The notes under the pieces were generated by a model. The model searched no databases. It saw nothing but the letters and a program-made list of their open reading frames with translations, and was not told the origin of the DNA. Positions 5,581 to 23,797 of a stretch of DNA of 24,530 nt are shown here, one piece after another. The translations under genes and the position numbers were made by a program. This DNA is from a virus. Taxonomy: Duplodnaviria; Caudoviricetes. The number at the start of each line of letters is the position of its first letter. Positions within the stretch are counted from its first letter, which is position 1. The stretch lies in IMG/VR virus record IMGVR_UViG_3300036446_000028, positions 1-24,530 of that record; one strand, written 5' to 3'.

Positions 5581-6032
5581 TTCTTCGGTGGCGCTTCGTA
5601 GATGGTCTGGAACGTCATCGTGCCCGAATGCGCAGTTTCCGACTTGTCGCTCAGACCAAGATCGCGGGCGATGATGCTGGGGTTGAGCAGCCCGGCCGAC
5701 GCGCCCTCGAATTTTTGCGTTCGGATGATCTCGTCCACCCGCGTTGTGATGTCCGCAAAACCATCGGCGTCTCGCCACACGTCCCAGGTCGTGCGCGAGA
5801 TATCAAGGAAGATGCACAGGCCCGTCACGGTCATGGCCCGCATCTTCGGAAGCTCTTGCAGCTTCACGTCGCCTTGGTAGGCGAAGGCTTGCGATTCCTT
5901 CAGCGGGTTGGCTTCCACCCACTGGAAATACTCGCAGCAGGCGTCCCACAGGGCTTCTGCTGTTTCGAACTTGGGCTTGCGGCCATGCGAGCTGCGCATT
6001 TGCCAAAAGCTGTTGCCTTCGGGCGCTGCCAT
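5577..6032 (-). CDS. terS: terminase small subunit, P22 gp3-like
   Basis: MAAPEGNSFW..RSSHGRKPKF..ACCEYFQWVEANPL..KMRAMT..IIARDLGL closely follows P22 gp3 as recalled; immediately upstream of terL. Confidence 0.92.
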   Translation of the reverse strand: MAAPEGNSFWQMRSSHGRKPKFETAEALWDACCEYFQWVEANPLKESQAFAYQGDVKLQELPKMRAMTVTGLCIFLDISRTTWDVWRDADGFADITTRVDEIIRTQKFEGASAGLLNPSIIARDLGLSDKSETAHSGTMTFQTIYEAPPKK

Positions 6033-6426
6033 TGGATCACTCTGCTGAAATACCTAAGGGCGCCGCACCCTGCTTCGCGCGGTAGATGGGACGCGGTTTC
6101 TCTCGAAGGCCGCACGCCGCTTTCAGGTGCTCTGGAAACACGAGGGACGGCGAACCTGTCGCTCGCACTGGCGCGAGGCTGCCGTCCCCGGGAGATGCGC
6201 CGTGTCGACCCGACGACTTCGCGGAAGGCGGGTCACACCGCCGCGCCGCGCGCGCTCCGCCGGGCTTGCTGCTAGGCGGGACCTTGGAAATTCGGCAATG
6301 CTTCGCTTTGGGCGGCCACTGCAGTAGGGTGGCCCAGATCGGTAGCGCCTCGGCATCTAAGGCTGGCGCTGCTCACCGGTCGTCTGCATGGGTGTGGTAT
6401 TTGACTACCGCTGATTTGGCAAGTGC
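6033..6426 (-). promoter_or_regulatory. putative late promoter and long structured leader
   Basis: 394-bp gap between the nusG-like gene and terS. Candidate TTGCCA(6422-6417)-N17-TACCAC(6399-6394). Stems at 6144-6188, 6202-6238, 6314-6334 and 6342-6372. Confidence 0.5.
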
Positions 6427-7035
6427 CTATGCCGCCGCTAGATGTTCCAGCGGTACCGTGATCTCCCGCTCGCTGCCGAACATCGCCATCACCACCTTGG
6501 CCATGTCGCCTTCAATCCGGTCAATCGTGACGACTTTGTCTGCGAACCCTCCAGCGTCAAATTCCGCCGATGCCCGCATCCAGCCCTGTTGCCATCGCCC
6601 GATGCGGACGGCGTCGCCGGCCTGCAGGCGCTGATCCTCGATCTCGTCAACGATGCTCTTGGGCGGCAGCCGAAACAGCTCCGGTCCATAGCGGTGGTGC
6701 TGCCGAACGATTTCCTTGGGCCGGATCAGCGTGGGGAGCCCGTCGCTCGTTATCGACACCACGCCCGACAAGAGCGGCTCGAGCAGCGGATCCTCGAATA
6801 GGCTGCGCCAGGCCGGCGTGCGCGTTTCAAAGCCTGTGATCAGATAGGGACCGAGGTGCGGCAGCGGGAAGCGTGTCACCGACTTGCAGTGCCGCGATCG
6901 GCGCCGAGCTCGCCATTCGTGGGGCAGGGCGGTTTGAAACCCCCGGTCCTGCAGAGCCAGCGCCGCTTTGAATACGCGGTTCGGCCGCGCCCGCAGCAAG
7001 TACCAGTGCAGCGAGAGAATCTGTTCGTCGAGCAA
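6427..7035 (-). CDS. NusG/RfaH-family transcription antitermination factor (phage paralog)
   Basis: NGN start HWYLLRARPN, PYLITGF, and KOW-like C-terminus GDAVRI...KVVMAMFGSEREITVPLEHL. TTG start with SD GGGGG. Sits in the lambda-Q position before the packaging genes. Confidence 0.85.
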   Translation of the reverse strand: MLDEQILSLHWYLLRARPNRVFKAALALQDRGFQTALPHEWRARRRSRHCKSVTRFPLPHLGPYLITGFETRTPAWRSLFEDPLLEPLLSGVVSITSDGLPTLIRPKEIVRQHHRYGPELFRLPPKSIVDEIEDQRLQAGDAVRIGRWQQGWMRASAEFDAGGFADKVVTIDRIEGDMAKVVMAMFGSEREITVPLEHLAAA

Positions 7036-7060
7036 GTGGAGCCCCCAACATGGTCATTGG

Positions 7061-7085
7061 GAGCCGGGGCAGGTGAGGCGAGAAC
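7061..7085. repeat. 25-bp element, inverted copy of 14986-15010 (24/25)
   Basis: GAGCCGGGGCAGGTGAGGCGAGAAC versus the reverse complement of 14986-15010, GAGCCGGGGCGGGTGAGGCGAGAAC. Confidence 0.93.
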
Positions 7086-7091
7086 GGTATC

Positions 7092-7120
7092 CTTATACCG
7101 CAGCCTACTCTCGTGGTCCA
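7092..7120 (-). promoter_or_regulatory. putative sigma70 promoter of the nusG-like gene
   Basis: TGGACC(7120-7115)-N17-TATAAG(7097-7092); predicted TSS about 7085. Confidence 0.55.
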
Positions 7121-7127
7121 GACTTAG

Positions 7128-7535
7128 TCATCCGGCCGACCTGATGGTCATATTTTCCGGTTTTGACCGTTTACTGACCTTCGGCGCGACGCTGGTCGCC
7201 GACCCGCTGGCGCGCTTGGCATGAACAGTCACGACATATTCGTCCTGCTGCCCCAGGGCTCGGAGCACTGCTGCCGGCTCTTTGGCAATTACGGTCAACA
7301 GGACGCGCGACGCGGCGTCGATGGCGAACCGCGCCTGTTCCCAGTCGCGCACTCGCCCGGGGGAAAACCCGAACGCCTCGGCGAACTTGACCTGGCTTAG
7401 TCCAAGGCCCTTTCGAATGCCCTTCAGGTCTACCTCTTCCGGAATGTGCGTGACGAAGCCGGCGCGCTCCCCTTCGACATACTCCAAGGTGTCCTGCAGC
7501 CCGGCCATGATTTTGCTGAACGCGTTCTTGGTCAT
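7128..7535 (-). CDS. higA: HigA-like XRE-HTH antitoxin
   Basis: IRKGLGLSQVKFAEAFGFSPGRVRDWEQAR HTH; ATGA-coupled downstream of a RelE-family toxin. Confidence 0.85.
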   Translation of the reverse strand: MTKNAFSKIMAGLQDTLEYVEGERAGFVTHIPEEVDLKGIRKGLGLSQVKFAEAFGFSPGRVRDWEQARFAIDAASRVLLTVIAKEPAAVLRALGQQDEYVVTVHAKRASGSATSVAPKVSKRSKPENMTIRSAG

Positions 7536-7885
7536 TTTCCCTTGCCTTCCTTTTTTACGTACGCCTCGGCAATCGCCTTAACGGCCACCCCGAGGTCGTT
7601 GCGCTCCGCCTTGGACAGATTGTCCTTTTCGTTCTTGCCGAACACCGACAGCAGGAACACCGGCAGGCCTTCGTCGTGATAGAACGATACCACCCGATAG
7701 CCACCGCGCTTGCCCATCCCCGGCTTTGCGAACCGAAACTTGCGCACCCCGCCCGCACCGGCGATCAGGTCGCCCATCTGCGGGTTATCGGCGAGTGCTT
7801 CAACGATCTCAGCGCGAACGTCGTCGGACATGCCAGCAGCCTTGGCGGCGGCAAGAAACGACGGGGTTTCGACAACGGTGTGCAT
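7532..7885 (-). CDS. higB: RelE/HigB-family toxin
   Basis: MHTVVETPSF..GDLIAGAGGVRKFRF..GKRGGYRVV..FGKNEKDNLS. Likely start is ATG 7885, since the track start lies inside the promoter. Confidence 0.88.
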   Translation of the reverse strand: MHTVVETPSFLAAAKAAGMSDDVRAEIVEALADNPQMGDLIAGAGGVRKFRFAKPGMGKRGGYRVVSFYHDEGLPVFLLSVFGKNEKDNLSKAERNDLGVAVKAIAEAYVKKEGKGK

Positions 7886-7892
7886 GCGCCCG

Positions 7893-7947
7893 TATGTACG
7901 GGCTGCCCGCACCGTTGTCAATGGGGAATATACGGGCTGCCCGCACC
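7893..7947 (-). promoter_or_regulatory. higBA promoter with two palindromic operators
   Basis: TACGGGCTGCCCGCACC at 7897-7913 and 7931-7947; TTGACA(7921-7916)-N17-TACATA(7898-7893). Confidence 0.8.
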
Positions 7948-8006
7948 ACAGAAGGAGCCAGATGTGGTTCCTTCTGCGTGGGCAATCTGGGGACGCGTAG
8001 CCCTGC

Positions 8007-8192
8007 CTAAGCTCTCGGCAGCCTCAACTGGCAAGACGTGCAAGAGCCGCTGAGCTTGCCGATTATCTTCTCCTTCCACCAGTGGAAGGTGTGCCGCTCG
8101 CATTTCGGACAGTCGATAATTCCGACGTCTCCGGGCTGTGGTTCCAGTTTAGCGATATCGACCAGCGCCTGCATTGCGGGAGGGAGCTTCAA
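8007..8192 (-). CDS. small zinc-finger protein (CxxC...CxxC)
   Basis: CPKC and CTSC; TTG 8192 overlaps the upstream stop (TTGA). Confidence 0.6.
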   Translation of the reverse strand: MKLPPAMQALVDIAKLEPQPGDVGIIDCPKCERHTFHWWKEKIIGKLSGSCTSCQLRLPRA

Positions 8193-8986
8193 GCCGCCGC
8201 CTTCCGCCGCTTGCGGGCCTTCTTGAACCAAGTGCTGGCCATCGCCCTGTACATGGGCACGCGATGGGTGGCAGCGAAGGCCTTGGCGTCGGCGTCTAGG
8301 GTCAGCCGGGCACCGTCAATCGCCAGCCAGAGCATGTCCGCGTCGACCTCGTCGAATTCGGCGTCGGTCAGCAGCAACTCGGCGGCCTTCATGTGTTGAC
8401 TGGTCACCGGCGCCAGCTTGCCCTTGGCCAGTTGCTCCAGCACGACTGCGGCGCGACGGTCGCCCCATTCCTTACGCAGCGCCGATATCCCGCCGACGGC
8501 GATGGTTTCCCCGTCGTGGTAATCGCCCTTACTGGCCGGGTACCGCAGCACCGTGAGCCCGGCACGCTCCGCCACCATGATCACCGCCAGCGCGTCGGCA
8601 TCGCCGGCTGCGTGCTGCGCCCAGAACAGCTGCAGGCTCGACACGTTGCGGCGATCCTTGTTGATCGCGACGAAGTTCTCCGCCTCGCCGGCCGTGCCGT
8701 CGGTTTCGATGATGACGGCGGGCACCACCGTGATCGCCGGATGCCGTTTGGCTGCCTCGAGCCGATGCTGACCGTCAGTGACGTGGTATCCGCCCTCGAC
8801 CTTGGCGACGACGATCGCGCCAAAGCTCGACCAGGTGAACCACTCCAACATTCGCTGCACGCGCGCCTCGTCGAGCTCGCGCTGATAGGTCGGGTCCACG
8901 GTGATCAGATCCTTTTCGATCCAATCTAGCACCGGCGGTTCGCCAGGGTCGCGATATGCCACCGCGACCCCCTCCAAATCGGCCAT
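8189..8986 (-). CDS. ParB/Srx-like N-terminal domain protein (DUF6551-like)
   Basis: VDPTYQREL and YHVTDGQHRL motifs; likely start ATG 8986, just after the upstream stop. Confidence 0.8.
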   Translation of the reverse strand: MADLEGVAVAYRDPGEPPVLDWIEKDLITVDPTYQRELDEARVQRMLEWFTWSSFGAIVVAKVEGGYHVTDGQHRLEAAKRHPAITVVPAVIIETDGTAGEAENFVAINKDRRNVSSLQLFWAQHAAGDADALAVIMVAERAGLTVLRYPASKGDYHDGETIAVGGISALRKEWGDRRAAVVLEQLAKGKLAPVTSQHMKAAELLLTDAEFDEVDADMLWLAIDGARLTLDADAKAFAATHRVPMYRAMASTWFKKARKRRKAAA

Positions 8987-8988
8987 CG

Positions 8989-9510
8989 TCACGCCGCCTT
9001 TCTTGCTTCGATGGCATCGAGCACGGCCGAAGCCGCCACGGATGCTGCCATCTGCAGGGTATCCAACATGACGAAGGGTAGGTCGCTCAACTCGTCGTGG
9101 CCCGCGCGATTTTCCTGCTCCTCGGCCGCGTACCACGCAAGATGCGCCATCAGCGCGCGCAGTCCGGCAACGTCAACGACGGGCGTCGCCAGCAGATGCA
9201 GCATGGCATCCGCCTCCGCTTCTTGCGCCTGAAAGGTTTCGTCGACGCCCTCTGCGATCTGGAAATGCACCCAGGCGGACCAGTGACCGTTGATCGCCAG
9301 ATGCAGTCCGGTATCGACGCCATCAAGGACCGGATAATAGCCGGGCACCTTGGCGGGGTAGTCGCTTTGGCTCAGGGCCGTCAAAGCGCGTCCGAAATCG
9401 AGGAAGCCCTCGAGTTCTTCGCTGGGCAGCCGCCTCACCAACTCGTTGAATTCGTCGATTGCTGCGGCCGGCGTAGTGCCGACCGCTCCGGTGTCAATCT
9501 TGGTGCTCAT
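8989..9510 (-). CDS. hypothetical phage protein
   Basis: 173 aa, tightly packed in the operon. Confidence 0.7.
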   Translation of the reverse strand: MSTKIDTGAVGTTPAAAIDEFNELVRRLPSEELEGFLDFGRALTALSQSDYPAKVPGYYPVLDGVDTGLHLAINGHWSAWVHFQIAEGVDETFQAQEAEADAMLHLLATPVVDVAGLRALMAHLAWYAAEEQENRAGHDELSDLPFVMLDTLQMAASVAASAVLDAIEARKAA

Positions 9511-9512
9511 GA

Positions 9513-10976
9513 TCAGGCCGCCTGCTCGAGGCCGTTGCCGATGGCAGCCAGCGCCGACAAATATTCCTCGTAGCTGTCCGTCACGCCCAGCGTGGTCAGG
9601 TAGCCGGCCTGCGCAGCAACCTCGGCGACGCTCTGAGGGACATACCGCACCACCGCCCGCAGCGTCTCTACCTCGGCATCGTTGGCGGCGTTGAAGGCGT
9701 CGATTGCCGGCTGAAACGGTGCGCGGCGCTGCTCCAGTTTCCGGGCGGCTTCACGATAGTAAACGGCGGTGCATTCGGTCAGGCTGGCGGCGACGGCCTG
9801 CCGGATGCGGTCGGCTTCCTTCGGAAACGACTTTTCAAGGTAGCCGACGCCGCAGTCGCGCAGCCAGCTGTCGTGCTCGTCGGCGATCCGCTTCACATCT
9901 GCGTCCGCGTCTTCGCCATAGACCTCCACGTAGACCGGTATCTTGCCGCCGACAATTCGGGCAGGGGTCAGGATCGGGTCTTTGCTGCTCAACGCCTCCA
10001 GCGCGTCCTGCGCCTCGTCTTCGGCGTCCGTCGTGTCGCCGAACGCTGCCCATGCCACCTTGTGCGCTTCGATCAGCGCCTCGAGGGTGCCGGTCGGACG
10101 GATCGGGTTGTACCGGTCGGCGGCGTCGCACACGTCGTGCATGAGCTGCGACACCATCCTGCCTTCCCAACTTTCCGCGGACTCGATAACCCCGACCCCC
10201 CCGTCCTGCGTCAGTTCGAAATACAGGCCGATGCTCTTCGCCGCGATGCCTTGCAGCGTGTGTGGTCGACACCAGTTCACCGCCTGCAACAGCAGGGCAG
10301 CGCGATCGCCCACCACGCTGTAGGCACGAAGCGCCTCGCGCCATTCGGCATAGCCCGCGCAGTCCTTGCCCTCGTTATCGTAGTACCGCGCCTTCCCCGT
10401 GGCCAACTTGACGGAAGCGTCGTGCCATTCGCGCGTAGCGACCACCGTCTTCCAGCGCCTGGACGCCTCTTCCGCCAGCGGCATCAGTTCTGCCGCCATG
10501 GCGACTAGAATGCTGTCGTCGGCCGGATTTACAGTCTGCCACCGGTCGAAGAAGGACGCTGCATTCGGGAGAACCTCGACGATCCTGACCCCCGCCAGAT
10601 GCTCGACGATGTCGTAGACGTGGAACAGGTCGTCGGGGTGATCACCGACGACCACATCATCGCCGCGCATTTCGTGGATGATGTGCACGCCCTCGCCTTT
10701 GAAACCAGCGTCCCAATCGGCCCTGCTCGGGGTGCCGACCATGACAAGCGAGCCGACGCCGATCTGGTCCAGTGTCGAGAGCATCGCATTGCGCCGTTTC
10801 AGTTCCGACCGATCTTCTTCGCCGTCGGCATCGTCGCGCTTCACCTTGGCCATGACCTTGGCGACGACCTCGGGCGCGGCGGGGAACGAACCAATGCTGC
10901 CGGGCAGGCTCGGGGATCCGATCTTGACGCCGTTTGCGGTGGTGCGGGTGGTTGTGGTATCGGTGGTGTCGGTCAT
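9513..10976 (-). CDS. hypothetical Ala-rich helical protein (about 487 aa)
   Basis: Long ORF; likely start ATG 10976 (MTDTTDTT) with SD GAGAGGAA at 10984-10991. Confidence 0.75.
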   Translation of the reverse strand: MTDTTDTTTTRTTANGVKIGSPSLPGSIGSFPAAPEVVAKVMAKVKRDDADGEEDRSELKRRNAMLSTLDQIGVGSLVMVGTPSRADWDAGFKGEGVHIIHEMRGDDVVVGDHPDDLFHVYDIVEHLAGVRIVEVLPNAASFFDRWQTVNPADDSILVAMAAELMPLAEEASRRWKTVVATREWHDASVKLATGKARYYDNEGKDCAGYAEWREALRAYSVVGDRAALLLQAVNWCRPHTLQGIAAKSIGLYFELTQDGGVGVIESAESWEGRMVSQLMHDVCDAADRYNPIRPTGTLEALIEAHKVAWAAFGDTTDAEDEAQDALEALSSKDPILTPARIVGGKIPVYVEVYGEDADADVKRIADEHDSWLRDCGVGYLEKSFPKEADRIRQAVAASLTECTAVYYREAARKLEQRRAPFQPAIDAFNAANDAEVETLRAVVRYVPQSVAEVAAQAGYLTTLGVTDSYEEYLSALAAIGNGLEQAA

Positions 10977-11007
10977 TCTGAAATTCCTCTCACGGATTTT
11001 TCGGTGG

Positions 11008-11196
11008 CTACTTCGAGGGGTGGACCGTTGGCGCGGTCTGCCCCTCACTGTTTTCTGCTGCTAGGCCCTTTTCGATCAGGATACGCGCGGCCTTCGCCTT
11101 GCTCCCGATCTGATTTCTCCACCGGTACGCTTCGATCGCTTCCGTCTCATCGTCCGAAAGCATCATCGGGAACCGGTTGTTTCGCACCTGAGCCAT
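11008..11196 (-). CDS. ribbon-helix-helix DNA-binding protein
   Basis: RFPMMLSDDETEAIEAYRWRNQIGSKAKAARILIEKGL fits a strand-helix-helix pattern; SD AAGGAGGG. Confidence 0.8.
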   Translation of the reverse strand: MAQVRNNRFPMMLSDDETEAIEAYRWRNQIGSKAKAARILIEKGLAAENSEGQTAPTVHPSK

Positions 11197-11221
11197 CAGG
11201 CCCTCCTTGTTTGTGCGGCTG

Positions 11222-11294
11222 ACACAACTTGTGCTAGTTGTGCTACGTTGCTCTTTGAGCGGCGGCGTGTCAATGCTACTGGCACAACTTGTGC
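11222..11294. promoter_or_regulatory. divergent promoter/operator region of the RHH pair
   Basis: Palindromes ACACAACTTGTGC (11222-11234) and GCACAACTTGTGC (11282-11294); minus-strand TTGACA at 11273-11268. Confidence 0.75.
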
Positions 11295-11306
11295 AGGAAA
11301 ATTTTG

Positions 11307-11789
11307 ATGGCGGACGAGAAGCCTCCGAAGGACAACCGCGTCCCGATTATGATGAGCGATGCTGAGCTCGGGGCCATCGACAACTGGCGATTTGAAAACC
11401 GCATAGCGACCCGCTCGGAAGCCATCCGCCGACTGTGCAAGATCGCCCTCTTTGTCGACGACAAACTTGATCTTCTATTGGAGGACTTGGGGGCGGCGGC
11501 CAACAGTGTGCTCGACGTGGTGAACCTCACCGAGGAGCCCCCTCCACTCGATTCCTGGGAGTTCAGGTTGCTTGACGCGGTTTTCAGCGGCGACGGCGGT
11601 CTAATCAAGGCGGTTGGCGATCTTGAAGAACTTGCTGTGGTGACACGGCCGTATCGAACCGCGCCTTCTCTGCAAGAAGCGATAGAACAGGCAGCCCGCG
11701 AGCGCGTGCTGCATCTCGGCCGACGCGAGGATGCGCAAGCGGAGGAAAAGGCGGCAAGAGACGAGGGCGTTACCAAAAGCAAGAAATAG
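11307..11789 (+). CDS. ribbon-helix-helix regulator with C-terminal extension
   Basis: RVPIMMSDAELGAIDNWRFENRIATRSEAIRRL resembles the divergent 62-aa protein; likely start ATG 11307. Confidence 0.8.
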   Translation: MADEKPPKDNRVPIMMSDAELGAIDNWRFENRIATRSEAIRRLCKIALFVDDKLDLLLEDLGAAANSVLDVVNLTEEPPPLDSWEFRLLDAVFSGDGGLIKAVGDLEELAVVTRPYRTAPSLQEAIEQAARERVLHLGRREDAQAEEKAARDEGVTKSKK

Positions 11790-11928
11790 GACAGCCCTCG
11801 CGTGCACGCACATGCACGTGCACGGCGCGCGACACGCGCGTGCGTATGCGATGGGCGGAATCGGTTGCTCAACCCATTGCCAGTCCTTGCGAAATCGGCC
11901 CCAAACGGGATTTTCCCGTGATGTGGAC

Positions 11929-12396
11929 TCATGCCGCACCGCCGTCCGGATCATCGCCGCAGACCATACGGGCGTTGACCTCGTTCGCGACGAGCGTGGC
12001 AAGTGCGTCGAGCTCCAGCGTCAGGCCGCGGCTTTCCTCGATGATCATCAACCCGCCTTGCAGCTCTTCGAGAACGGAGTATGGCATTCCCCGTATGCTG
12101 GCCTCGACGACCTCCAACGCCGTGCCAATCTGCTGCTGCGCGTTGACCAGCACGCCGTGCGCCAACGCGCTCATCTCCGGACTGTCCTCGAGCTCGTCGG
12201 CAAGCCGGTGAGCTTCTTCGAACTCGGCCTTGGTCACCGGCCTCTGGCGAACAAAGCCCATAACGTCGCTCTCGAATGACCTTTGGAGCGGGCGCCGATT
12301 GACAACGGATCCCGGCACCGCCGTCGCGCGCGGGTCGGACCTACCTTTGCGTCTGGCGTACCGTTCGGCCGCCAAATTGATGACCATCTCGGTCAT
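11929..12396 (-). CDS. hypothetical phage protein (155 aa)
   Basis: ATG 12396 in ATGA overlap with the initiator stop; SD AAGGAAG. Confidence 0.7.
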   Translation of the reverse strand: MTEMVINLAAERYARRKGRSDPRATAVPGSVVNRRPLQRSFESDVMGFVRQRPVTKAEFEEAHRLADELEDSPEMSALAHGVLVNAQQQIGTALEVVEASIRGMPYSVLEELQGGLMIIEESRGLTLELDALATLVANEVNARMVCGDDPDGGAA

Positions 12397-13313
12397 GCTG
12401 CTTCCTTTTCGGATTGCGGTCGACGGGACCATTCCGTCCAGCCGGTGCCGTCGTTGGGTTTGAGAAGATGCTCTGGTGCGAGGCAGCCCGGCTGTCCGGG
12501 CGCCGGCCCCCATTCGCCCGTGGCCCAGATCGATTTCGACCGGGCCCACGTGAGGCGCTTTTGCCAGTCATCCTCGGAAACCGGCTTGACCGTTTGCAGG
12601 AAACCCTCGGCACGCCCTTCGGTGATGAAGCGGACCATGTGCACCGGCCGGTAGTCCGGCGTCGCTCGGCAATGGGCGACGAACGCCGGGATCGCCGCCG
12701 CTACGTTGGCGCGCTCGTCGGCACCAATCCGAGCCCAAGCGGTGGCGGCCTTCTTTTTCGACATCAACCGATCCGTCGGATAAGCGAGCCAGGCGGCTTC
12801 GAAGTCTGGGGGGTACGCCGACCTCTTCGAAGCCTTCTTTGCAGGGGCGTCCGAAACGCCAGTTTCGGACAAGATATCTTCTTTCCCTGTTTCCCTGTTT
12901 CTTATCTGTCCCGCTGCTGTCCCGCTGCTGTCCCGCTCGGTGTCCCGGTTGCCGTCCCGCTCTGGCAGTCCGACCTTCTGATATTCGTCGTAATTACAGA
13001 TGGTTACGACAGTGACGCCCTGTCCCGCTGCTGTCCCAATCATGGTCCCGATTTTCAATCGACCGAAAAACCGATCAACGCGCGATTTGCTCCATGCCCA
13101 CCGGTCCGCGAGGAAGCGGATTGAGTGCGCACATTGCCCGCGTTTCAGGTCGACCTGCACGCTACCCACCCTAATGGTAGTGGGCCGCCAGGCCGCTTCC
13201 GAGATCAGGAACAGCCATGCCTCGCGCTCGGTGAACGGCTCTTTGGCGAACGCCGGGTGGTCGAAGATCGCCCGCGAAACCGCAAAGACACTGACGCTGC
13301 CGTTACGCTGCAC
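12393..13313 (-). CDS. phage replication initiator (lambda O/DnaD-like winged helix)
   Basis: EPFTEREAWLFL..LKRGQCAHSIRFLADRWAWSKSRVDRF..VTICNYDEYQ; internal iterons; adjacent to DnaB. Confidence 0.82.
   Translation of the reverse strand: MQRNGSVSVFAVSRAIFDHPAFAKEPFTEREAWLFLISEAAWRPTTIRVGSVQVDLKRGQCAHSIRFLADRWAWSKSRVDRFFGRLKIGTMIGTAAGQGVTVVTICNYDEYQKVGLPERDGNRDTERDSSGTAAGQIRNRETGKEDILSETGVSDAPAKKASKRSAYPPDFEAAWLAYPTDRLMSKKKAATAWARIGADERANVAAAIPAFVAHCRATPDYRPVHMVRFITEGRAEGFLQTVKPVSEDDWQKRLTWARSKSIWATGEWGPAPGQPGCLAPEHLLKPNDGTGWTEWSRRPQSEKEAA
12871..13053. repeat. putative replication origin: iterons plus purine/pyrimidine-skewed tract
   Basis: CTGTCCCGCTG-like units at 12906, 12917, 12928, 12940, 12952, 13020, 13031 and 13043 (11-12 bp period); TTTCCCTGT repeats in 12871-12905. 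Confidence 0.8.
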
Positions 13314-14745
13314 GGGTCATCTCCCCGTATCCACGCCGAGCGGCGTTCCCGAAGTGCGAGCATCCGATGTCGACGAACAGTTCGATCGTATCGATCCGGC
13401 CGTTGCGCTGCTTCGCGATCTCGACCTCGGCCTGATGAAGGCACGCGGCCAGGTCCGCGTCCCGCTCAATCTGCTTGTCGAGCGTCGACGGCTTTTCCCG
13501 GGCCAGGTAGTAGGCGTGCCGATACAGGAACATCACCATATCGGCGTCCTGTTCGATGGCTCCAGAATCGCGCAGATCGGCGAGGGTGGGGCGCTTGTCG
13601 TCGCGCTGCTCGACGGCCCGGTTGAGCTGCGTCAGCAGCAGCACGGGCAGGTCGAATTCCTTGGCCAGTTCTTTCATCCCCTCGGTGATCTCGCCAAGCT
13701 CAAGCACCCGGTTGCCGGAATAGCGGCTGGTCGGCTTCACCTTCAGCAAATGGTCGACCACAAGGAGATCGAGGGCGAAGCCGCCGGCGTCAAACTCGGC
13801 GGCCATGCCTTCGACCTTCGCCCGAATGTCGGAAATCGTCAGCCCGGAGCTGTCTTCGATGCGAACCGGCAGTGCCGCCATATCGGCGGCGATGGCGTCG
13901 AGATATTCCAGCTCGTCGTTGCTGGCGCTGCCGTTGATGATGCTCTCGTACGGGATAGTCACCGCCCGCCGGAAGGCCAGGTCGGACAGCAGCCGGGGTG
14001 AAAGCTGCTCATGGCCCATCTCGATTGAGAGGAACCCGACTCCGTTTCCAGCTTTGGCGGCCGACAAGGCAATACTGGTCCCCAAAGTGGTCTTGCCCAT
14101 GGACGGCCGGGCGCCGAGAAGGATGAGGTTCTTGCGCTGCAGGCCGCCAGTGATGCGGTCGATGTCAACAAGGCCGGTGGTGATCCCGGTGAGGCCATGC
14201 CGCTCACGTGCGGCTCGCGACGCGGCCAGTGAGGCTTCAGCGCTCTCCCCTAGCCATCTGGCGGTACGACCCCGGCCGCCCCGCCGCAACGTTGATCCAA
14301 GATCGTCGACGGTGGACGCGAGGCTCCGAAGTAGCGACTGTACATCGGTTTCTGGTGCCGAGGCGGCGATGGCAACAGTCTTGGCCTCCACCGCCAATTG
14401 GATGCGCGCCCACTGCGCCACCACCTTCCGCGCCGCAGCCATCGTGGTGCCGGCGCTATACAGGGTATCCGTGGTGCATCTGCCCATGTAGGCACCGAGT
14501 TCGAGGCCCGTACCCGCCTTGAAGGTCTGCAACACCTCCGGCTGGATGAGGCGCAACACCACCGGCACCGTGGTCGAGCTGAAATGTTCCAGCGCCAGCC
14601 GCGCCGCAGCAAAGATGGCCTGGTGGATAGGGTCTACCAACTGGTGGTCGTCCATGAAGGCAAAGACCGGGCGGTGATCGCCGCCGGCCAGAATGGCACC
14701 GAGCAATTGCTGCTCGAGCTCGATGACGAAGCCGTCGTCAGCCAC
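13303..14745 (-). CDS. dnaB: replicative DNA helicase, DnaB family
   Basis: GARPSMGKT, FLSIEM, LLVVDHL, QLNRAVEQRDDKRPTLADLRDSGAIEQDAD, IAKQRNG. Confidence 0.96.
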   Translation of the reverse strand: MADDGFVIELEQQLLGAILAGGDHRPVFAFMDDHQLVDPIHQAIFAAARLALEHFSSTTVPVVLRLIQPEVLQTFKAGTGLELGAYMGRCTTDTLYSAGTTMAAARKVVAQWARIQLAVEAKTVAIAASAPETDVQSLLRSLASTVDDLGSTLRRGGRGRTARWLGESAEASLAASRAARERHGLTGITTGLVDIDRITGGLQRKNLILLGARPSMGKTTLGTSIALSAAKAGNGVGFLSIEMGHEQLSPRLLSDLAFRRAVTIPYESIINGSASNDELEYLDAIAADMAALPVRIEDSSGLTISDIRAKVEGMAAEFDAGGFALDLLVVDHLLKVKPTSRYSGNRVLELGEITEGMKELAKEFDLPVLLLTQLNRAVEQRDDKRPTLADLRDSGAIEQDADMVMFLYRHAYYLAREKPSTLDKQIERDADLAACLHQAEVEIAKQRNGRIDTIELFVDIGCSHFGNAARRGYGEMTRAA

Positions 14746-14941
14746 GCGTCAGAACCTCGTAAAATCTGTCGTAGGCCTCGACGGCCGCGCGCATGTGGAT
14801 GATGTTTCCCACCTTCTGCGCCTTGGTCAGCGCCGCCCGGAAGTCTTCGAAGGCGGCGTCGAGATCGCCGTCGTCGGCAACCAGCTTGCCGCCTTCGACC
14901 GTCGCCAAAGCTTGGGCGTCCACGATCCTGTCGTGTTCCAT
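14738..14941 (-). CDS. hypothetical protein (67 aa) coupled to dnaB
   Basis: ATG 14941 with SD GGAG at 14952-14949; overlaps the dnaB start. Confidence 0.7.
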   Translation of the reverse strand: MEHDRIVDAQALATVEGGKLVADDGDLDAAFEDFRAALTKAQKVGNIIHMRAAVEAYDRFYEVLTRG

Positions 14942-14965
14942 CAGGCATCTCCATTTCGAACTGTC

Positions 14966-15010
14966 GAGCCGGAACGGATGGAGGTGTTCTCGCCTCACCC
15001 GCCCCGGCTC
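14966..15010 (-). ncRNA. predicted regulatory RNA hairpin in the early transcript
   Basis: Minus strand GAGCCGGGGCGGGUG-AGG-(CGAGAACA)-CCU-C-CAUCCGUUCCGGCUC: 18-bp stem with three G.U pairs that form only on this strand. The 5' arm plus loop is complementary to 7085-7061. Confidence 0.6.
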
Positions 15011-15033
15011 AAGCGCCGCCGCGGCGCTATTCG

Positions 15034-15462
15034 TCAGCCGGCGCGCCTGGTCGGCGTCGCCTGAAGATCTTTGCGATCACCCGGTCCCAGTAGAGCTTCA
15101 GCCTCAGCCACAAGAGCGAGACGAGCAGGGGTCGGCGGGAGTTGTTTGGCGATTTCGAGCTCATGGCGGAGTTTGGCCTCTTGCCGCGCGCAGGCCGTGT
15201 CATAGGCGGCCTTGATCCTCAGCCACGCGGCCACGGCCATCTGTTTCGGTTTGCGGTAGCGGAGCGCCCAGAAGGTCTGAGCGGGGATCCCATACGCCTG
15301 CTCGGCGCGGTGCATCGACGCTTCGACGGTATCGCCGGGACCTTGGTGGACCCGATCCAGCAGGGCGTCGGCCCAGACCGCCGCCTTGTCGACGGCATCT
15401 GCATCATCGACGACGGTCAGGTCAGTCATAATTTGCCCCAAACGCAAAGGATTTCTCGGCAT
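15034..15462 (-). CDS. phage regulatory protein in the cII position
   Basis: GPGDTVEASMHRAEQAYGIPAQTFWALRYRKPK HTH-like block; ATG 15462 with SD GGAG. Confidence 0.7.
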   Translation of the reverse strand: MPRNPLRLGQIMTDLTVVDDADAVDKAAVWADALLDRVHQGPGDTVEASMHRAEQAYGIPAQTFWALRYRKPKQMAVAAWLRIKAAYDTACARQEAKLRHELEIAKQLPPTPARLALVAEAEALLGPGDRKDLQATPTRRAG

Positions 15463-15793
15463 GTGCAATCGCTCCAACGCTACGTTTCTCAGCGTTGAAG
15501 ACGACGTGCAGACCGAAAGGACTATCGAAGTGACCGTGAGAAAGACCGAGAGCCTGGCAGCTGTAGTGATCAATCTCGCGGCGGAGCGCGCCCGTAGACG
15601 CGCCAAAATTCAGGTTCGCGGCGAGCCCCGTGCCGCGCCGCTGGTGCCGGGGCCGATCCCCAATGCCGCCATGCTCCGGCACCAGCACCCCCGGAGCAGC
15701 CGTAATCGGCGCTGGGGGGATGAGTAGGAAGCCGGCCGCGATGATCGCGTGCCGTCGCCGGCTTCCATCGCTGAGGTGGCGCAGCGAATTCAT

Positions 15794-16099
15794 TCAGGCG
15801 GCGATCCGGTCGCTGTCTTCGGTCACACCGTCAGCGTGCCCCAGCTGGGCAATGTTTCGAACCGCCCTGCCCAACGCCAGCAATTCGTGCACTTCGTCCG
15901 CGCCGAATTCCTGCAGCAACTTGAGAACCGCGTGTTCCTGGAGGCGCCTACGCAGATATGCAGCAGCACTGGGCGCGATACGAGCAATGCCTTGTTCCCA
16001 CCCAGCCACCGTCGAGACGTGGTTGCCAATTTCATCGGCCAGTTGCTGCTGCGTAAGCCCGAGTTGCCCGCGGCAACTTTTGATTTCTGATGGCTCCAT
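15794..16099 (-). CDS. Cro-like XRE-HTH protein
   Basis: RGQLGLTQQQLADEIGNHVSTVAGWEQG; divergent from cI. Confidence 0.8.
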   Translation of the reverse strand: MEPSEIKSCRGQLGLTQQQLADEIGNHVSTVAGWEQGIARIAPSAAAYLRRRLQEHAVLKLLQEFGADEVHELLALGRAVRNIAQLGHADGVTEDSDRIAA

Positions 16100-16133
16100 C
16101 CCGCACCTAATGTGAAGAAGCTTGGATGGTGAT

Positions 16134-16202
16134 CATCTACGAATTTCCCGTAGAAAAGTCAATGGTCGGTTACGAGAAATCCGTAGCTTCGTGTGGCATA
16201 GT
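16134..16202. promoter_or_regulatory. OR-like region: two operators and divergent promoters
   Basis: CTACGAATTTCCCGTAG (16137-16153) and TTACGAGAAATCCGTAG (16170-16186); minus-strand TTGACT(16162-16157)-N17-TAGATG; plus-strand TGnCATAGT at 16194-16202. Confidence 0.8.
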
Positions 16203-16209
16203 CACCTTT

Positions 16210-16905
16210 ATGAGCGACCCAGCAGACTATTCGACCACCGACGGACGGCTCCGTGCAGCTTGGAAGGCTGCTGGTTACAATTCCGCCGCTGACGTTGCCA
16301 AGCGTACCAACATTCCTTACTCGACGTTCGCCGGCCACTCGAACGGTAGTGCTGGCATCCCGGTTGAGGCGTTGAAGCGGTACGCTGACGTGTTTCGCGT
16401 CAATATCGAGTGGCTGATGACAGGCCGCGGTCGCATGATGCGAGAGCAGACAGTTTTAGTCGGCGAGTCTGTGACTCGAGGGCTTGCGGTTGTCGGCAAA
16501 GCTCAGCCTGGGATTTTTGTCGATGCAGCCGCAGCGGAAATGGGGCAAGACCGCCGAATCCCCGTGATGCCGTTGGTGCAATTCTTCAAGGCTTCACAGT
16601 ATGCCCTTGAGGTGGTGGGGGATAGCGTGGGCGACGTCCTTGCTGAGGGCGAATTTGCAGTCTGCGTAGAGTACCCCGAGCCGGACCTTGGTCTGAAAGG
16701 CGGCTCTCTGGTTCACATTGAGCGCCATCGTGACGCCGGTCAGTTGGTTGAGACGACGATCAAGGAACTGCAGCAGCGCGGAAACGACTGGTGGGCCATT
16801 CCTCGTAGCAAGAACCCGAAATGGCAGGGCTTCCGGATTAGCGGGGACGACAGCGTCGTTATCAAAGGCATAGTGACCGGGGTCTACCGCCGAATCGCCT
16901 TTTAA
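16210..16905 (+). CDS. cI: CI-like repressor (XRE HTH plus S24 peptidase domain)
   Basis: N-terminal HTH; VVGDSV (Ser) and TTIKEL (Lys) dyad; IKGIVTG end. Likely start is ATG 16210, since 16126 lies across the operators. Confidence 0.9.
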   Translation: MSDPADYSTTDGRLRAAWKAAGYNSAADVAKRTNIPYSTFAGHSNGSAGIPVEALKRYADVFRVNIEWLMTGRGRMMREQTVLVGESVTRGLAVVGKAQPGIFVDAAAAEMGQDRRIPVMPLVQFFKASQYALEVVGDSVGDVLAEGEFAVCVEYPEPDLGLKGGSLVHIERHRDAGQLVETTIKELQQRGNDWWAIPRSKNPKWQGFRISGDDSVVIKGIVTGVYRRIAF

Positions 16906-16911
16906 TGACCG

Positions 16912-16977
16912 CTACGATCTTTCCGTAGCCTTGAGCCTAAAAATGCTTCATGCTACGAAGTAGTCGTAGAATGAAGC
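16912..16977 (+). promoter_or_regulatory. OL-like region: two operators over a rightward promoter
   Basis: CTACGATCTTTCCGTAG (16912-16928) and CTACGAAGTAGTCGTAG (16953-16969); TTGAGC(16931)-N17-TACGAA. Confidence 0.8.
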
Positions 16978-17126
16978 TCAGAAGTCGCCCCGCGAGTGAG
17001 AATGCTGAGCAGCTGCCCTCTGAGGTCGCTGCGATCATTATCGCCCTTGCCAAGGAGCAGGCGCGGCGCGACCACTATGCCCAGAACGGGGAAGCGGCCG
17101 GCGAAGCCAGCCGACGCACGGCATGA
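16971..17126 (+). CDS. 51-aa protein coupled to the integrase; candidate recombination directionality factor
   Basis: MKLRSRPASENAEQLPSEVAAIIIALAKEQARRDHYAQNGEAAGEASRRTA*; stop overlaps the integrase ATG (ATGA); too short for the ORF track. Confidence 0.65.
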   Translation: MKLRSRPASENAEQLPSEVAAIIIALAKEQARRDHYAQNGEAAGEASRRTA

Positions 17127-18709
17127 CCAAGGCGGCGATCTACGCGCGCTTCAGCTCAGACCTTCAGCGCGATCGGTCCATCGAGGATCAGATCGAATCC
17201 TGCCGCGCATATGCCGAGCGGCAGGGCTTCGACGTCGTTGAGGTCTATGCCGATCGCGCCAAGTCGGGCGCTTCGATGCATGGCCGCGACGGCATTCAGC
17301 GCCTCATCAGCGACGGCCGCCAGCGGCTCTTCGATGTGGTCGTGGTCGAAACCCTGAGCCGCCTTGCCCGCGACGAAGGCGACCGCGCCGAGATCAGGAA
17401 GCGCCTCACCTTCGCTGGCGTGAAGACCATGACGCCGAGCGATGGCGAGGTCACCAGGCTGACCGACGGCATCAAGGCGATCATCGACGCCCAATACCTC
17501 GAGGATCTGAAGGTCATGGTCCGGCGCGGCATGGCCGGCGTGACCCGCGACGGCCGCCATGCCGGGGGCAGGGCCTATGGCTATCGCCCCATCCTGGGCA
17601 AGCCGGGCGAGCTCGAGATCGTCGACGATGAAGCCGCAATCATCAGGCGCATCTTCGCCGAGTATGCCGCCGGCAAGATGCCGCGCGCCATCTGCGCTGC
17701 CCTGAATGCCGAAGGGGTGAAGCCACCGCGCGGCACGTACTGGTCCGACGGCGTGCTGCGAGGCAACCGGGTCCGTGGTCATGGCATCCTCGTCAATCCT
17801 ATCTACAGCGGCGAGATCGTCTGGAACCGGGTCCGCATGGTCAAAGACCCCGACACCGGCAAGCGCGTGTCGCGCCAGAACCCAGTCGATGAGTGGCAGC
17901 GGGCTGCTGCTCCGCATCTTGCTATCGTTGATCAGCAGACTTTCGCGACGGTACAGGCCAAGCTGGGAGATATCGGTAAAGCCCCCGCATGGAAGGCGCG
18001 GCGCCCCAAAGGCCTGTTCGCTGGGCTGTTGCAGTGCGGTTGCTGTGGCGCCGGCATGTCGATCAAGGATCGTTCCGCCGGGAGGGTGCGAATCCACTGT
18101 GCCGCCGCCAGACAGGGCGCCTGCACCAACACCCGCACCGAATATCTCGACACCATCGAACCGGTCGTGCTGGACGGCCTGAAAGCCCGCCTGAAGGACA
18201 AGGCCGCCATCGCGCTCTACTTGCGCACCTACAACGACGAGCGCCGCGCCCTCGCGTTGGATAGCACCAAGCACAAGGCGCAACTCGACCGTCGGCTGGC
18301 GTCCGTTCAGGGACAGCTAGACCGTGCGATCGGCTTGGTCATCAAGGGATTGATCGGCGAGGATGATGCCGCGGCCGATATCGCTCGCCTCAAGGCGGAG
18401 CGGGCGGAGATCACCGCCCAACTGGCATCTGTCGGCGAAAAGCCGAAGGTCATCGAGCTGCACCCGGCAGCTGTGACCACGTACCTCGATACCGTCGACC
18501 GGCTCGAGGTAGCACTCAGGGAAGGCAGCGAACGCGATCACCCGGCCGCCGAACCTATCCGAGCGCTGATCGATCGCATCGTCATCACGCCCGGCGCGGC
18601 GAAGATCGCGACCGTGCGAGTTGAGGGAAAGCTCAATGCCCTGATCGGCGGCGAGCAATTTCCTGCCATGCGGCTTGGGGTAATTAGTGGTAGCGGAGGA
18701 GGGATTTGA
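17123..18709 (+). CDS. large serine recombinase (prophage integrase)
   Basis: IYARFSS catalytic Ser, LSRLAR, recombinase domain AYGY, zinc ribbon CGCCG..C..C, coiled coil; C-terminus reads into the tRNA fragment. Confidence 0.95.
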   Translation: MTKAAIYARFSSDLQRDRSIEDQIESCRAYAERQGFDVVEVYADRAKSGASMHGRDGIQRLISDGRQRLFDVVVVETLSRLARDEGDRAEIRKRLTFAGVKTMTPSDGEVTRLTDGIKAIIDAQYLEDLKVMVRRGMAGVTRDGRHAGGRAYGYRPILGKPGELEIVDDEAAIIRRIFAEYAAGKMPRAICAALNAEGVKPPRGTYWSDGVLRGNRVRGHGILVNPIYSGEIVWNRVRMVKDPDTGKRVSRQNPVDEWQRAAAPHLAIVDQQTFATVQAKLGDIGKAPAWKARRPKGLFAGLLQCGCCGAGMSIKDRSAGRVRIHCAAARQGACTNTRTEYLDTIEPVVLDGLKARLKDKAAIALYLRTYNDERRALALDSTKHKAQLDRRLASVQGQLDRAIGLVIKGLIGEDDAAADIARLKAERAEITAQLASVGEKPKVIELHPAAVTTYLDTVDRLEVALREGSERDHPAAEPIRALIDRIVITPGAAKIATVRVEGKLNALIGGEQFPAMRLGVISGSGGGI

Positions 18710-18790: not shown

Positions 18791-19525
18791 CTAGCCACTT
18801 TGTGGGCCCGATGTGACCGAAAACCCGCTGCGGGCCAAGGCGGCGACCATCGAGCCTCCAATCTGCCCAGTAGCGGCCTCCCAATCTTCGTAAACTCGCA
18901 CGGATACTTTTCGGTCCGAATACTGTCGGGACTGCCGTTGCGCCGTCTGCTTGAACCTTGAGATTGACCGGGAGATGCCTTGAACCGTGGGGTATCGGTC
19001 AAAGCTAGGCAGAAACGAGTGTTGGATGAATCGCTTCTTGACGATGAAATCCTCGATGTTGTCGGTCGTCCACACCCAGTAGTTTCGCTCCGTGTCGTTC
19101 GATGGCTTCGCGTCCCCGTCGATGAAGCGCTTAGCGAAGTGCCTAGCATCGATAGCCAGGTCGTTGAACAATGCGCCATCGACTATAAAGATATCTAGGT
19201 CGGACGTGTCGTTGAACGCTCTCCCAAAATCGCTGCCCAAAGAGTACCCGAGCCTAGCGCTCCCGGTCATGCTTATGTGCTTTGGGCTGATCTCAAGGCT
19301 TTGCGCCATCGCTTCTCGGGCCGCTTCGAAAGCCATGGGATGGTCGCGAAAAACATATGGCACTCCTTCGGATAGCCACTGCCTAGCAAACCTGAAAACT
19401 TCACGCTTTGAGATGGGTACGGTTTTGTCCCAGTCGCCGGGATTTGGGTATCGAGACGTCAGGCTAGTTGTCCATCCCGTGTTTGCCTCTGGACCGGACA
19501 ACAATTTCTTCAATGTACTGAGCAC
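18791..19525 (-). CDS. Pol-beta superfamily nucleotidyltransferase-like protein (start uncertain)
   Basis: MTGSARLGYS...SDLDIFIVD matches the hGS-x(n)-DxD signature. Confidence 0.72.
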   Translation of the reverse strand: MLSTLKKLLSGPEANTGWTTSLTSRYPNPGDWDKTVPISKREVFRFARQWLSEGVPYVFRDHPMAFEAAREAMAQSLEISPKHISMTGSARLGYSLGSDFGRAFNDTSDLDIFIVDGALFNDLAIDARHFAKRFIDGDAKPSNDTERNYWVWTTDNIEDFIVKKRFIQHSFLPSFDRYPTVQGISRSISRFKQTAQRQSRQYSDRKVSVRVYEDWEAATGQIGGSMVAALARSGFSVTSGPQSG

Positions 19526-20045
19526 GTTTCAGCACCCTTTCTAGCTTCTGCCTAGATGGATGTTGCGGCAGTGGGTACTTGAGCATTGCTGCAAAGAAGG
19601 CAGCCTCCTTTGCCGTAGCCTCAGCCAAGTTGATGCGATGTGTCGAAGCGATAGCCTCAAGGCCGTTGCCCTGCCAACCGAAGTACGCAACCTTTAGGTA
19701 CGCAAGTGCCAGTTGGCGCTTAGTGAAGCGTTGGGAGACATGAATCGCAATAGCGATCTCTGAAAGCTTTCTGCCAACGGTGAGTTCGTAGCGACCCCTT
19801 ATGGTGCGAACTAGCTGCTGTTCAATCGTACTCGCGCCACTGATCTTGCGGTTCAGCAAGTAACCCGTGACCGCCCGAATGATACCAATTAGGTCGAAGC
19901 CAGGGTGAGAATAAAACCTTCGATCTTCACCCGCGACCAGCGCAGCCAGCGCCCGGTCCAAACCAGCGGACGGAGGTATCGGTGATCTGGAAAGGTCATG
20001 AATTGCGCGGACTATCGCCCGCTTCTCGACCCCAGTTCTTGTCAT
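19464..20045 (-). CDS. stand-alone GT51 peptidoglycan transglycosylase-domain protein without a membrane anchor
   Basis: EDRRFYSHPG, GASTIEQQLVR, RKLSE and YLKVAYFG motifs; ATGA-coupled to the integrase. Confidence 0.88.
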   Translation of the reverse strand: MTRTGVEKRAIVRAIHDLSRSPIPPSAGLDRALAALVAGEDRRFYSHPGFDLIGIIRAVTGYLLNRKISGASTIEQQLVRTIRGRYELTVGRKLSEIAIAIHVSQRFTKRQLALAYLKVAYFGWQGNGLEAIASTHRINLAEATAKEAAFFAAMLKYPLPQHPSRQKLERVLKRAQYIEEIVVRSRGKHGMDN

Positions 20046-22944: not shown

Positions 22945-23275
22945 AATGAGCTCAAACATGGTCAACTTCGCCGAACTCACCGACAATGGGAAGGTGCGCA
23001 ACCTCTCCGGTAAGGAGCGCGGTATTGCGGCCAGGAGGCAACTCCACATTGACGACCTCGACAACACCGATGGCGTTGTTGAAGTAGTGGTCCCGGACTA
23101 TGTGGACACCATTTCCCCATCGTACTTCCAGGGGCTTTTTTCCGAGAGCATCGCGCGTTTGAATGGTCGCGACGGGTTTCTGCGGAAGTATCAGTTCCAA
23201 AGCTCCAACCAAGTTCGGCAGTGGATTGACGTTGGCATCCGCAACGCAACAGCAAGTCGGCGACCGCTGATTTAG
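22937..23275 (+). CDS. STAS-like (DUF4325-like) protein
   Basis: LSGKERGIAAR..VEVVVPDYVDTISPSYFQGLF pattern; overlaps the HATPase stop. Confidence 0.72.
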   Translation: MPEMSSNMVNFAELTDNGKVRNLSGKERGIAARRQLHIDDLDNTDGVVEVVVPDYVDTISPSYFQGLFSESIARLNGRDGFLRKYQFQSSNQVRQWIDVGIRNATASRRPLI

Positions 23276-23302
23276 CGGTCACGCCGTGGGGGCAGGCCGA
23301 CT

Positions 23303-23797
23303 ATGGAGACTGCTGACTGGTTAGCCTTGGGCGCTATCGTTCTTTCCTGCTACACCTTCGTTGATGGCCGGCTGATAGAGAAGCGGCTGGCTCGAAAGGC
23401 CGACGCTAGAAGCACATTCGACGGGCTGGTCACCACTCCGGTTGAAGCGAAGCTCTCGACACTTGAAGACGCGGTGCGTGAAGTCGCAAGCGATGGGGCC
23501 GACGCGGCAGACCAAGCGGCGCGCCTTGTCGAGGTGACTAGATGGGTACGCCGAACCTACAGCCCTTGGTTTGTCTCCTTCGAGGCGTTTCTACAAGCGA
23601 ACACAGAGGCGAAGCTTAGTGAGCTTTCCGACCTTCTATTCCAGTTTCACGACGAGGTCGCACCGCTCTTCGACGCGCTAGGCAATGCAACCTCGGAGCG
23701 CGACATAGACGAAGCTGGAAATGGTGCGATAAGCGCGAGCACCCGCTTCGTGGCTCGGATAAGAGCCGAAATTCAACAGATGCGTTTGCAGTACTAG
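23303..23797 (+). CDS. single-pass membrane protein
   Basis: N-terminal hydrophobic WLALGAIVLSCYTFV followed by a helical soluble domain. Confidence 0.7.
   Translation: METADWLALGAIVLSCYTFVDGRLIEKRLARKADARSTFDGLVTTPVEAKLSTLEDAVREVASDGADAADQAARLVEVTRWVRRTYSPWFVSFEAFLQANTEAKLSELSDLLFQFHDEVAPLFDALGNATSERDIDEAGNGAISASTRFVARIRAEIQQMRLQY

Follow-up and report, generated by a model that had tools for sequence, protein, structure and literature searches.

The DNA analysed here is a 24,530-nucleotide (nt) stretch of a virus (Duplodnaviria; Caudoviricetes; positions 1 to 24,530 of IMG/VR record IMGVR_UViG_3300036446_000028, hereafter the window) that carries a lambda-like prophage with a serine recombinase and divergent cI-like (16126-16905, plus strand) and cro-like (15794-16099, minus strand) genes. 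Along the minus strand, the cro-like gene is followed by a 123-amino-acid (aa) frame, a gene in the position of cII, an intergenic site that we call B, a 67-aa gene, dnaB, a replication initiator and further early genes; then come a RelE/helix-turn-helix (HTH) gene pair, a predicted promoter with a second intergenic site, A, a gene for a NusG paralog, terS and the packaging genes. Sites A (7061-7085, minus strand) and B (14986-15010, minus strand) are inverted copies of each other, and the analysis below suggests that RNA carrying B likely acts in trans to open the ribosome site of the NusG paralog.

The nusG paralog (6427-7035, minus strand) starts with TTG, encodes 202 aa and is likely a late antiterminator. 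Its match to Pfam NusG (E 6e-4) lies below the cut-off; PHROG 6386, an antiterminator family, is matched at E 7e-9, and the profile of its own family (A2) matches NusG in the PDB at E 4e-15. A structural model (predicted local distance difference test score, pLDDT, of 68) aligns with the N-domain of RfaH (Z 8.6, root-mean-square deviation (rmsd) 5.3, 92 aa) and with the KOW domain of NusG (Z 7.9, rmsd 1.8, 53 aa). By profile and model, then, the protein is a member of the NusG/Spt5 superfamily with NGN and KOW domains. In an NCBIfam scan covering RfaH, LoaP, UpxY and housekeeping NusG, the window protein reached at best 16.6 bits against a cut-off of 100 and a set of five NusG-like proteins at best 64.7 bits, so that every named NusG subfamily cut-off was missed. 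The fold, together with the position of the gene before terS, terL and portal, points to a late antiterminator role. The only named close relative of the protein is encoded in a Devosia genome (locus L002, 68% identical), from which we infer a Devosia-like host. Searches of the window protein against cultured phages, of its homolog from locus L034 against phages and of that from L026 against plasmids returned no match.

A predicted sigma70-type promoter (7092-7120, minus strand) precedes the gene, with TGGACC (7120-7115) as the -35 and TATAAG (7097-7092) as the -10 hexamer. The hexamers, their 17-nt spacing and the 6-nt gap between TATAAG and the start of site A, at the predicted +1 (7085), are as given in a preliminary description of this DNA that was made from its letters. 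A generic sigma70 scan of 5900-17200 yielded no matches and left this promoter unscored. Downstream of A, the leader is predicted to fold into a hairpin (7040-7065, minus strand; z-score -3.2, 2 of 200 shuffles) covering the GGGGG Shine-Dalgarno (SD) sequence at 7046-7042, again as previously described. Site A comprises a 20-nt open 5' toehold and 5 nt of the anti-SD arm in the nusG leader: its mean probability of being unpaired is 0.92 over the first 8 nt and 0.18 over the last 6 nt. Site B, which we propose as the A-complementary trigger sequence, forms the 5' arm and loop of an 18-bp hairpin in the early operon (14966-15010, minus strand; z -5.7, 0 of 200 shuffles), which is likewise present as reported and whose 3' arm includes a proposed anti-SD sequence (14983-14978). 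The 8 nt of B that would meet the 5' end of A have a mean unpaired probability of 0.72. Between the stop codon of the cII-like gene and B lies a small GC hairpin (15012-15028, minus strand) that the preliminary description missed; equivalents occur in loci L002, L003, L104 and L113.

The two 25-nt arms, 7,900 nt apart, are complementary at 24 of 25 positions, in agreement with the coordinates and sequences given earlier. The longest distant inverted match with at most one mismatch in 100 dinucleotide shuffles of the window was 15-20 nt, and 25 nt was reached in none. As minus-strand RNAs, A and B pair over all 25 nt, with one position as a G.U wobble, as had been proposed; the computed energy is -57.5 kcal/mol. 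A second inverted pair in the window, between the nusG coding region (6918-6940) and the 3' end of cro (15854-15876; 21/23, or 19 nt with one mismatch), was set aside as chance, being matched in 16 of 100 shuffles, and has no counterpart in the relatives.

To place the pair in context, nusG-like loci were gathered from viral contigs, from the Devosia family (243 genomes) and from a 401-genome sample of its order. Upstream DNA was fetched for the best-scoring matches and 110 loci were tabulated (L181 was dropped as too short), of which 62 were classed as phage-type after removal of five duplicates, by the rough rule that a locus came from a viral record or had 4 or more matches to phage open reading frames (ORFs). 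Eleven of these 62 (the window, L002, L003, L026, L027, L034, L040, L101, L104, L110 and L113) have their own matched A/B pair, with the sites 3.7-12.4 kb apart. Nine score 42-57, and a score of 42 was reached by 1 of 170 control windows. In all eleven, B lies upstream of A on the same strand. It is placed behind the stop codon of an early gene, frequently with a small GC hairpin in between. Three further loci (L028, L179 and L188) have an A-type leader on contigs too short to leave room for B. Promoter-like hexamers with the same spacing were seen by eye upstream of A in the relatives, with A about 6-7 nt beyond them, and a strict TTG-N17-nAnnnT pattern matched in 6 of 10 pair loci (the window's own promoter is not matched) compared with 3 of 53 others. 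Hairpins equivalent to 7040-7065 are found in the relatives with altered sequence.

The sequences of the pair vary between phages and match within each; in the eleven prophages they are co-conserved and covary, with compensatory changes of the kind that the preliminary description proposed looking for. The duplexes are 19-33 nt long and almost perfect. The ten scored duplex cores, to which L101 makes no contribution, contain 238 Watson-Crick pairs, 9 G.U pairs and 10 mismatches (5 A.C and 5 other). Over the 25 nt, the window and L003 differ by six two-sided changes and three one-sided changes, all of the latter to G.U, and by no break. The B structure covaries as well among five relatives (88% of cells paired, five pairs with two-sided change), in a test for which the structure was derived from that very alignment. 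The eleven loci are not all independent: one 21-mer is common to L026 and L027, and L104 is close to L113. On the NusG tree, the pair loci stand in several separate places among pair-less neighbours. A model of B built from five loci (R1) recovered its training loci and L110 (E 0.04). It found none of 49 pair-less loci at E<0.1, a weak negative given that 5 of the 11 pair loci were also missed; in 151 Devosia-family genomes it returned the known loci and otherwise only three weak matches in or antisense to host genes.

Several candidate pairs were discarded in this survey. L001, L197, L198 and L200, from exact-pattern scans of viral contigs, are unrelated chance matches; L109 (score 42) has A within a coding frame and the partner beyond cI; L023 and a first match in L110 are repeated palindromes; and L129, L158, L105/L168, L038, L149 and L150 were rejected on context.

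Folding predictions suggest what the pairing might do. The nusG ribosome site alone costs 10-25 kcal/mol to open in 10 of 10 loci folded, meaning that, with the window hairpin at z -3.2, the predicted target site is hidden by a leader helix, as trans-activation would have it. The first 8 nt of A are predicted to be open in all ten (0.60-1.00), in eight of them its final 6 nt are largely paired, within the helix over the ribosome site, and in seven the seed of B, the part meeting the 5' end of A, is open. When the leader is cofolded with B, opening the nusG site becomes 5.7-15.4 kcal/mol cheaper in nine of the ten loci; in the window itself, the cost falls from 16.8 to 10.5 kcal/mol, with part of the SD hairpin remaining. 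Simply blocking A lowers the cost by at least 7 kcal/mol in 7 of 10 loci, the reductions in the other three being 3.4 in L113, 2.5 in L040 and -0.5 in L110; in L101, outside these ten, it lowers the cost by 8.7 kcal/mol. The cognate partner is the best binder in 8 of 10 rows, the two exceptions being near-identical partners. By computation, B would bind the anti-SD strand and make the nusG site easier to open; both the hairpins and this opening effect are properties of the folding model. The preliminary description had proposed a reciprocal switch in which A-B pairing turns late expression on and replication off, and the first half of that reading, the freeing of the nusG ribosome-binding site, is supported by these calculations.

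If the pair times nusG, it should be found where nusG lies outside the early operon. For this comparison, 40 pair-less loci with at least 6 kb of upstream DNA were used, 11 short or A-only loci being excluded; start codons and gaps were called heuristically, and the start was missed in L027 and L034. An upstream gap of at least 70 nt combined with a closed ribosome site occurs in 10 of 11 pair loci and 5 of 40 pair-less loci (Fisher p 2e-6, for loci that are non-independent). None of the eleven pair loci has a gap of 60 nt or less, compared with 27 of the 40 without a pair, and the median nusG opening cost is 16.7 kcal/mol with a pair and 7.1 kcal/mol without. Among three cultured-phage records, the nusG gene overlaps the previous gene in phi3LM21 and vB_MweS-yong2, and in ppBjS10J-1 the annotated gap before nusG seems by eye to contain another frame; none of the three has a pair at the nusG start. 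Lambda Q is timed by its place in the early operon, and the 27 pair-less loci are coupled to the early operon in the same Q-like manner. In the window, nusG looks like an equivalent of Q that stands alone and depends on a signal from the early operon, for which B is the sole candidate found. In sequence comparison, then, the complementarity, its covariation and conserved position go together with an uncoupled nusG. In locus L032, the nusG paralog has a promoter-like element of its own, together with a strong ribosome-site hairpin (~6150-6230), and a small non-replication gene precedes it.

Taken together, these observations favour a reading, to which we assign a probability of roughly 0.6, in which B is a trans-acting trigger that opens the nusG ribosome-site hairpin, such that the predicted late antiterminator is translated only after early transcription has begun. 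The nusG promoter would fire without early proteins, giving a message locked by its own hairpin. On induction, the cro-side transcript would make B; the free 5' end of A would then pair with the loop of B, zip along its 5' arm and pull the final 5 nt of A out of the SD helix. The NusG paralog so made would load at a promoter and leader motif just downstream of its gene and keep transcription going across the terminase and structural genes. This scheme presumes both transcripts and the start site, as well as action in trans, the direction from B to A and antitermination. For nusG, most related prophages still rely on the kind of operon coupling that times lambda Q; here the RNA pair would stand in for it, and a phage-specific pair sequence would limit cross-talk among co-resident prophages. 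The odds seem to us slightly better than even for a broader version, in which the pair is a natural, phage-specific toehold switch serving as the early-to-late step, its cassette having moved among NusG lineages, with replication shut-down as an added effect in some phages.

A number of points weigh against this reading. Our analysis is computational throughout, consisting of sequence comparison and folding predictions. Cofolding with B gives no gain in L113, the duplex falls short of the SD hairpin in L110 and L040, and even after pairing the opening cost in the window exceeds the pair-less median given above. Two of the eleven pairs, L034 (score 37, which 7 of 170 controls reach) and L101 (about 30), were accepted on context rather than score. 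L032 has a locked site and no partner within the available 6.2 kb upstream. The nusG promoter is not consensus sigma70, and antitermination by the paralog is deduced from fold and position. Finally, the excess of G.U over A.C among the duplex cores is not significant (9 versus 5, p 0.21), and the strand is therefore not fixed by wobble counts.

Among the alternatives, the full reciprocal switch adds to nusG activation the release of the 3' arm of B onto the next ribosome site, lowering replication. The words on which it was built, CUCCAU (14983-14978) and AUGGAG (14954-14949), are both present, anti-SD-like words are visible in the window, L003, L104 and L040, and cofolding raises the downstream opening cost by 4.8 (window), 4.7 (L003) and 6.8 (L104) kcal/mol. 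However, a rise of at least 4 kcal/mol is confined to these 3 of 10 loci; L002, L026 and L027 show no increase or even a decrease, and in four more the change stays below 2 kcal/mol. A null with swapped ribosome sites was not beaten in any of the ten (5 of 25 null values were at least as high for the window, and 3 of 25 in the best case), and the 3' arm of B would be rich in pyrimidines in any case, given its G-rich pairing partner. The replication half of the earlier proposal is thus not supported, and we consider the switch in its two-way form unlikely.

The roles could also be turned around, with the nusG leader acting as an antisense RNA on B and causing cleavage by RNase III or Rho-dependent termination of the replication transcript, in an immunity-like manner. 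In every one of the eleven loci B stands ahead of replication or early genes, the A and B sequences are phage-specific, and a duplex of 25 bp has sufficient length for RNase III. U-rich tails after the A hairpin in L034, L040, L110 and L113 could yield a short RNA, and P4 CI blocks replication genes through premature termination (PMC4825925). On the other hand, the U-tract is absent in the window, L002, L003, L026 and L027, and an antisense role for A leaves unexplained that most of the duplexes end within the anti-SD arm and that pairs are restricted to uncoupled, locked nusG genes. We regard this scheme, too, as improbable.

That B is upstream of A on the same strand throughout would also suit pairing in cis within one long read-through early transcript, the only form in which nusG would be translated. 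This would have to bridge 3.7-12.4 kb containing opposite-strand genes and inserts, and the complementarity ends within about 3 nt of the predicted +1, a boundary that fits a free 5' end; we think it quite doubtful. There is still less to recommend a scheme in which the A hairpin is mainly a transcription terminator whose formation B prevents: a U-rich run follows the hairpin in 4 of 10 loci (L034, L040, L110 and L113), but the window and five other loci are without one, and a terminator scan gave nothing on the minus strand in this region. Least probable of all is that the repeats act as DNA, either as inversion sites or as binding sites of a phage protein; an inverted arrangement, a serine recombinase nearby and the non-significant wobble bias would fit, yet the long frames lying between the two sites (replication genes, as far as they were identified) share one direction in all eleven loci, the phages share no common site sequence or symmetry, both sites are built into covarying RNA hairpins, and by eye no promoter-like element faces B on the other strand. 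No inversion joints were found in contigs of one DNA run that may come from the source sample, in which no contig spans both A and B, and with one orientation in all eleven loci a DNA inversion switch is unlikely.

The trans-trigger reading for B draws on a principle, activation by removal of an anti-SD strand, that is already known. DsrA frees rpoS in this way, but through short, imperfect and Hfq-dependent pairing, and synthetic toehold switches have the same combination of open 5' toehold and ribosome-site hairpin, but are engineered. In IS10, the free 5' end of RNA-IN enters the hairpin loop of RNA-OUT, as proposed here, but RNA-OUT is cis-encoded and represses; by analogy, the geometry of A and B suits a free 5' end that enters a loop and zips down. 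Sites 7.9 kb apart that pair as same-strand RNAs are unlike cis-encoded antisense systems such as OOP, aQ, sar and RNA-OUT. P1 C4 is a trans-encoded phage antisense RNA near replication or antirepressor genes, but it represses sites in its own operon, whereas A and B lie in separate predicted units. The same holds for P4 CI (described in PMC4825925), which resembles the present case as a trans-encoded phage antisense pairing near such genes, and differs from it in repressing and in acting on sites in its own operon.

The closest parallel in function is IsrK of the Salmonella prophage Gifsy-1, which activates translation in trans and thereby leads to the antiterminator AntQ (PMC4825925). There too, a prophage RNA refolds a translationally inactive message in trans with antiterminator production as the outcome; IsrK, however, is a shortened version of the very message that it targets and works through orf45-anrP. 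Here, by contrast, the trigger would come from a separate early operon kilobases away, pair over 19-33 nt almost perfectly and target the message of the antiterminator directly, and the protein is a NusG paralog, not Q. In lambda, as in the window, the antiterminator gene sits between early genes and the late-operon promoter, and control at the RNA level exists in the form of aQ, which lowers Q in cis (PMC12197685). That RNA is cis-encoded and reduces Q, whereas nusG here has its own predicted promoter and a trans-encoded RNA with a predicted activating effect. RfaH, LoaP and UpxY share with the window protein the NGN and KOW fold and a gene beside the long operon that is probably served; RNA-gated translation was not found described for these paralogs in the accessible text of PMC7593976, which also gives the recruitment of some NusG paralogs as unknown. 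Rfam, whose phage antisense families include C4, CI, IsrK and OOP, gave no match near A or B in the window up to E 5, and in six pair loci only tRNAs at gathering score. A description of this A/B pair was not found in the literature searched, which covered few subscription journals and no supplements. What appears new is the use of anti-SD removal in an almost perfect, phage-specific connection between the early operon and a NusG-type late regulator. If true, it would be a new way of timing late genes in temperate phages, through the RNAs of two operons instead of operon position or a protein activator, and it would explain how an antiterminator gene keeps its timing when inserted cargo, in this case a toxin-antitoxin pair, has separated it from the early operon. 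It would also supply some ten natural pairs of trigger and switch whose specificity is predicted.

A second promoter-like element, accompanied by a conserved leader motif, lies immediately behind the nusG stop codon, ahead of the terminase genes (6371-6422, minus strand; -35-like hexamer 6422-6417, motif 6385-6371); the preliminary description missed it. A motif of the type GGAYGA-N5-7-GAYCC, a pattern defined after inspecting the sequences, is found no more than 100 nt from the nusG stop in 20 of the 62 phage-type loci versus 1 of 43 others, with about 0.02 expected; the promoter-like element often includes CAAATCA. From its sequence, 6371-6422 may be a candidate late promoter and NusG-loading site, which would provide a candidate loading motif for an unstudied family of phage NusG paralogs. 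The motif appears to differ from the ops consensus. In placement, the element and motif behind nusG resemble pR' and qut behind lambda Q, and Q loads at qut near the late promoter (PMC12360218).

Of the genes around B, the one in the cII position (15034-15462, minus strand), directly upstream of it, matches phrog_35370 (E 3e-28, function unknown) and is 72% identical in L003; its 'cII-like' label refers to position only. The 67-aa gene after B (14738-14941, minus strand; ribosome-site region 14954-14949) overlaps dnaB and has a weak homologue after B in L027 (31%, E 6e-5). The dnaB helicase gene (13303-14745, minus strand; Pfam DnaB_C, E 5e-73) and the replication initiator gene (12393-13313, minus strand) both match PHROG replication families. 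Four exact TACG-N7-CGTA palindromes (16138, 16171, 16913 and 16954), also missed earlier, flank cI, two upstream and two downstream, and to judge by sequence are probable repressor operators; the cI/cro region presumably controls the transcript carrying B. Another palindrome, CGGTA-N6-TACCG (GGTA-N6-TACC), spans the -10 hexamer of the nusG promoter (7084-7101) and recurs in the downstream promoter (6394-6411). It is limited to the window, L002 and L003, is unlike the cI-type palindromes and is possibly a shared protein site.

The RelE/HTH toxin-antitoxin pair (7128-7885, minus strand; Pfam RelE E 2e-9, and HTH_3) lies between the early genes and the nusG promoter. The cargo at this point differs in each phage, with unrelated ORFs in L002 (~9160-9820) and L003 (~8920-9920), and a tRNA gene is found shortly after nusG in L002 and L034. 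Elsewhere in the window, divergent small regulators of 62 and 166 aa with a weak PHROG repressor match (11008-11789) are embedded in the early region against the direction of their neighbours. Cargo between the serine recombinase and a tyrosine integrase (18791-20045) comprises a transglycosylase-domain gene and an unnamed 244-aa gene, and beyond the tyrosine integrase lie three unnamed genes (21520-23797), placing two integrases in one region.

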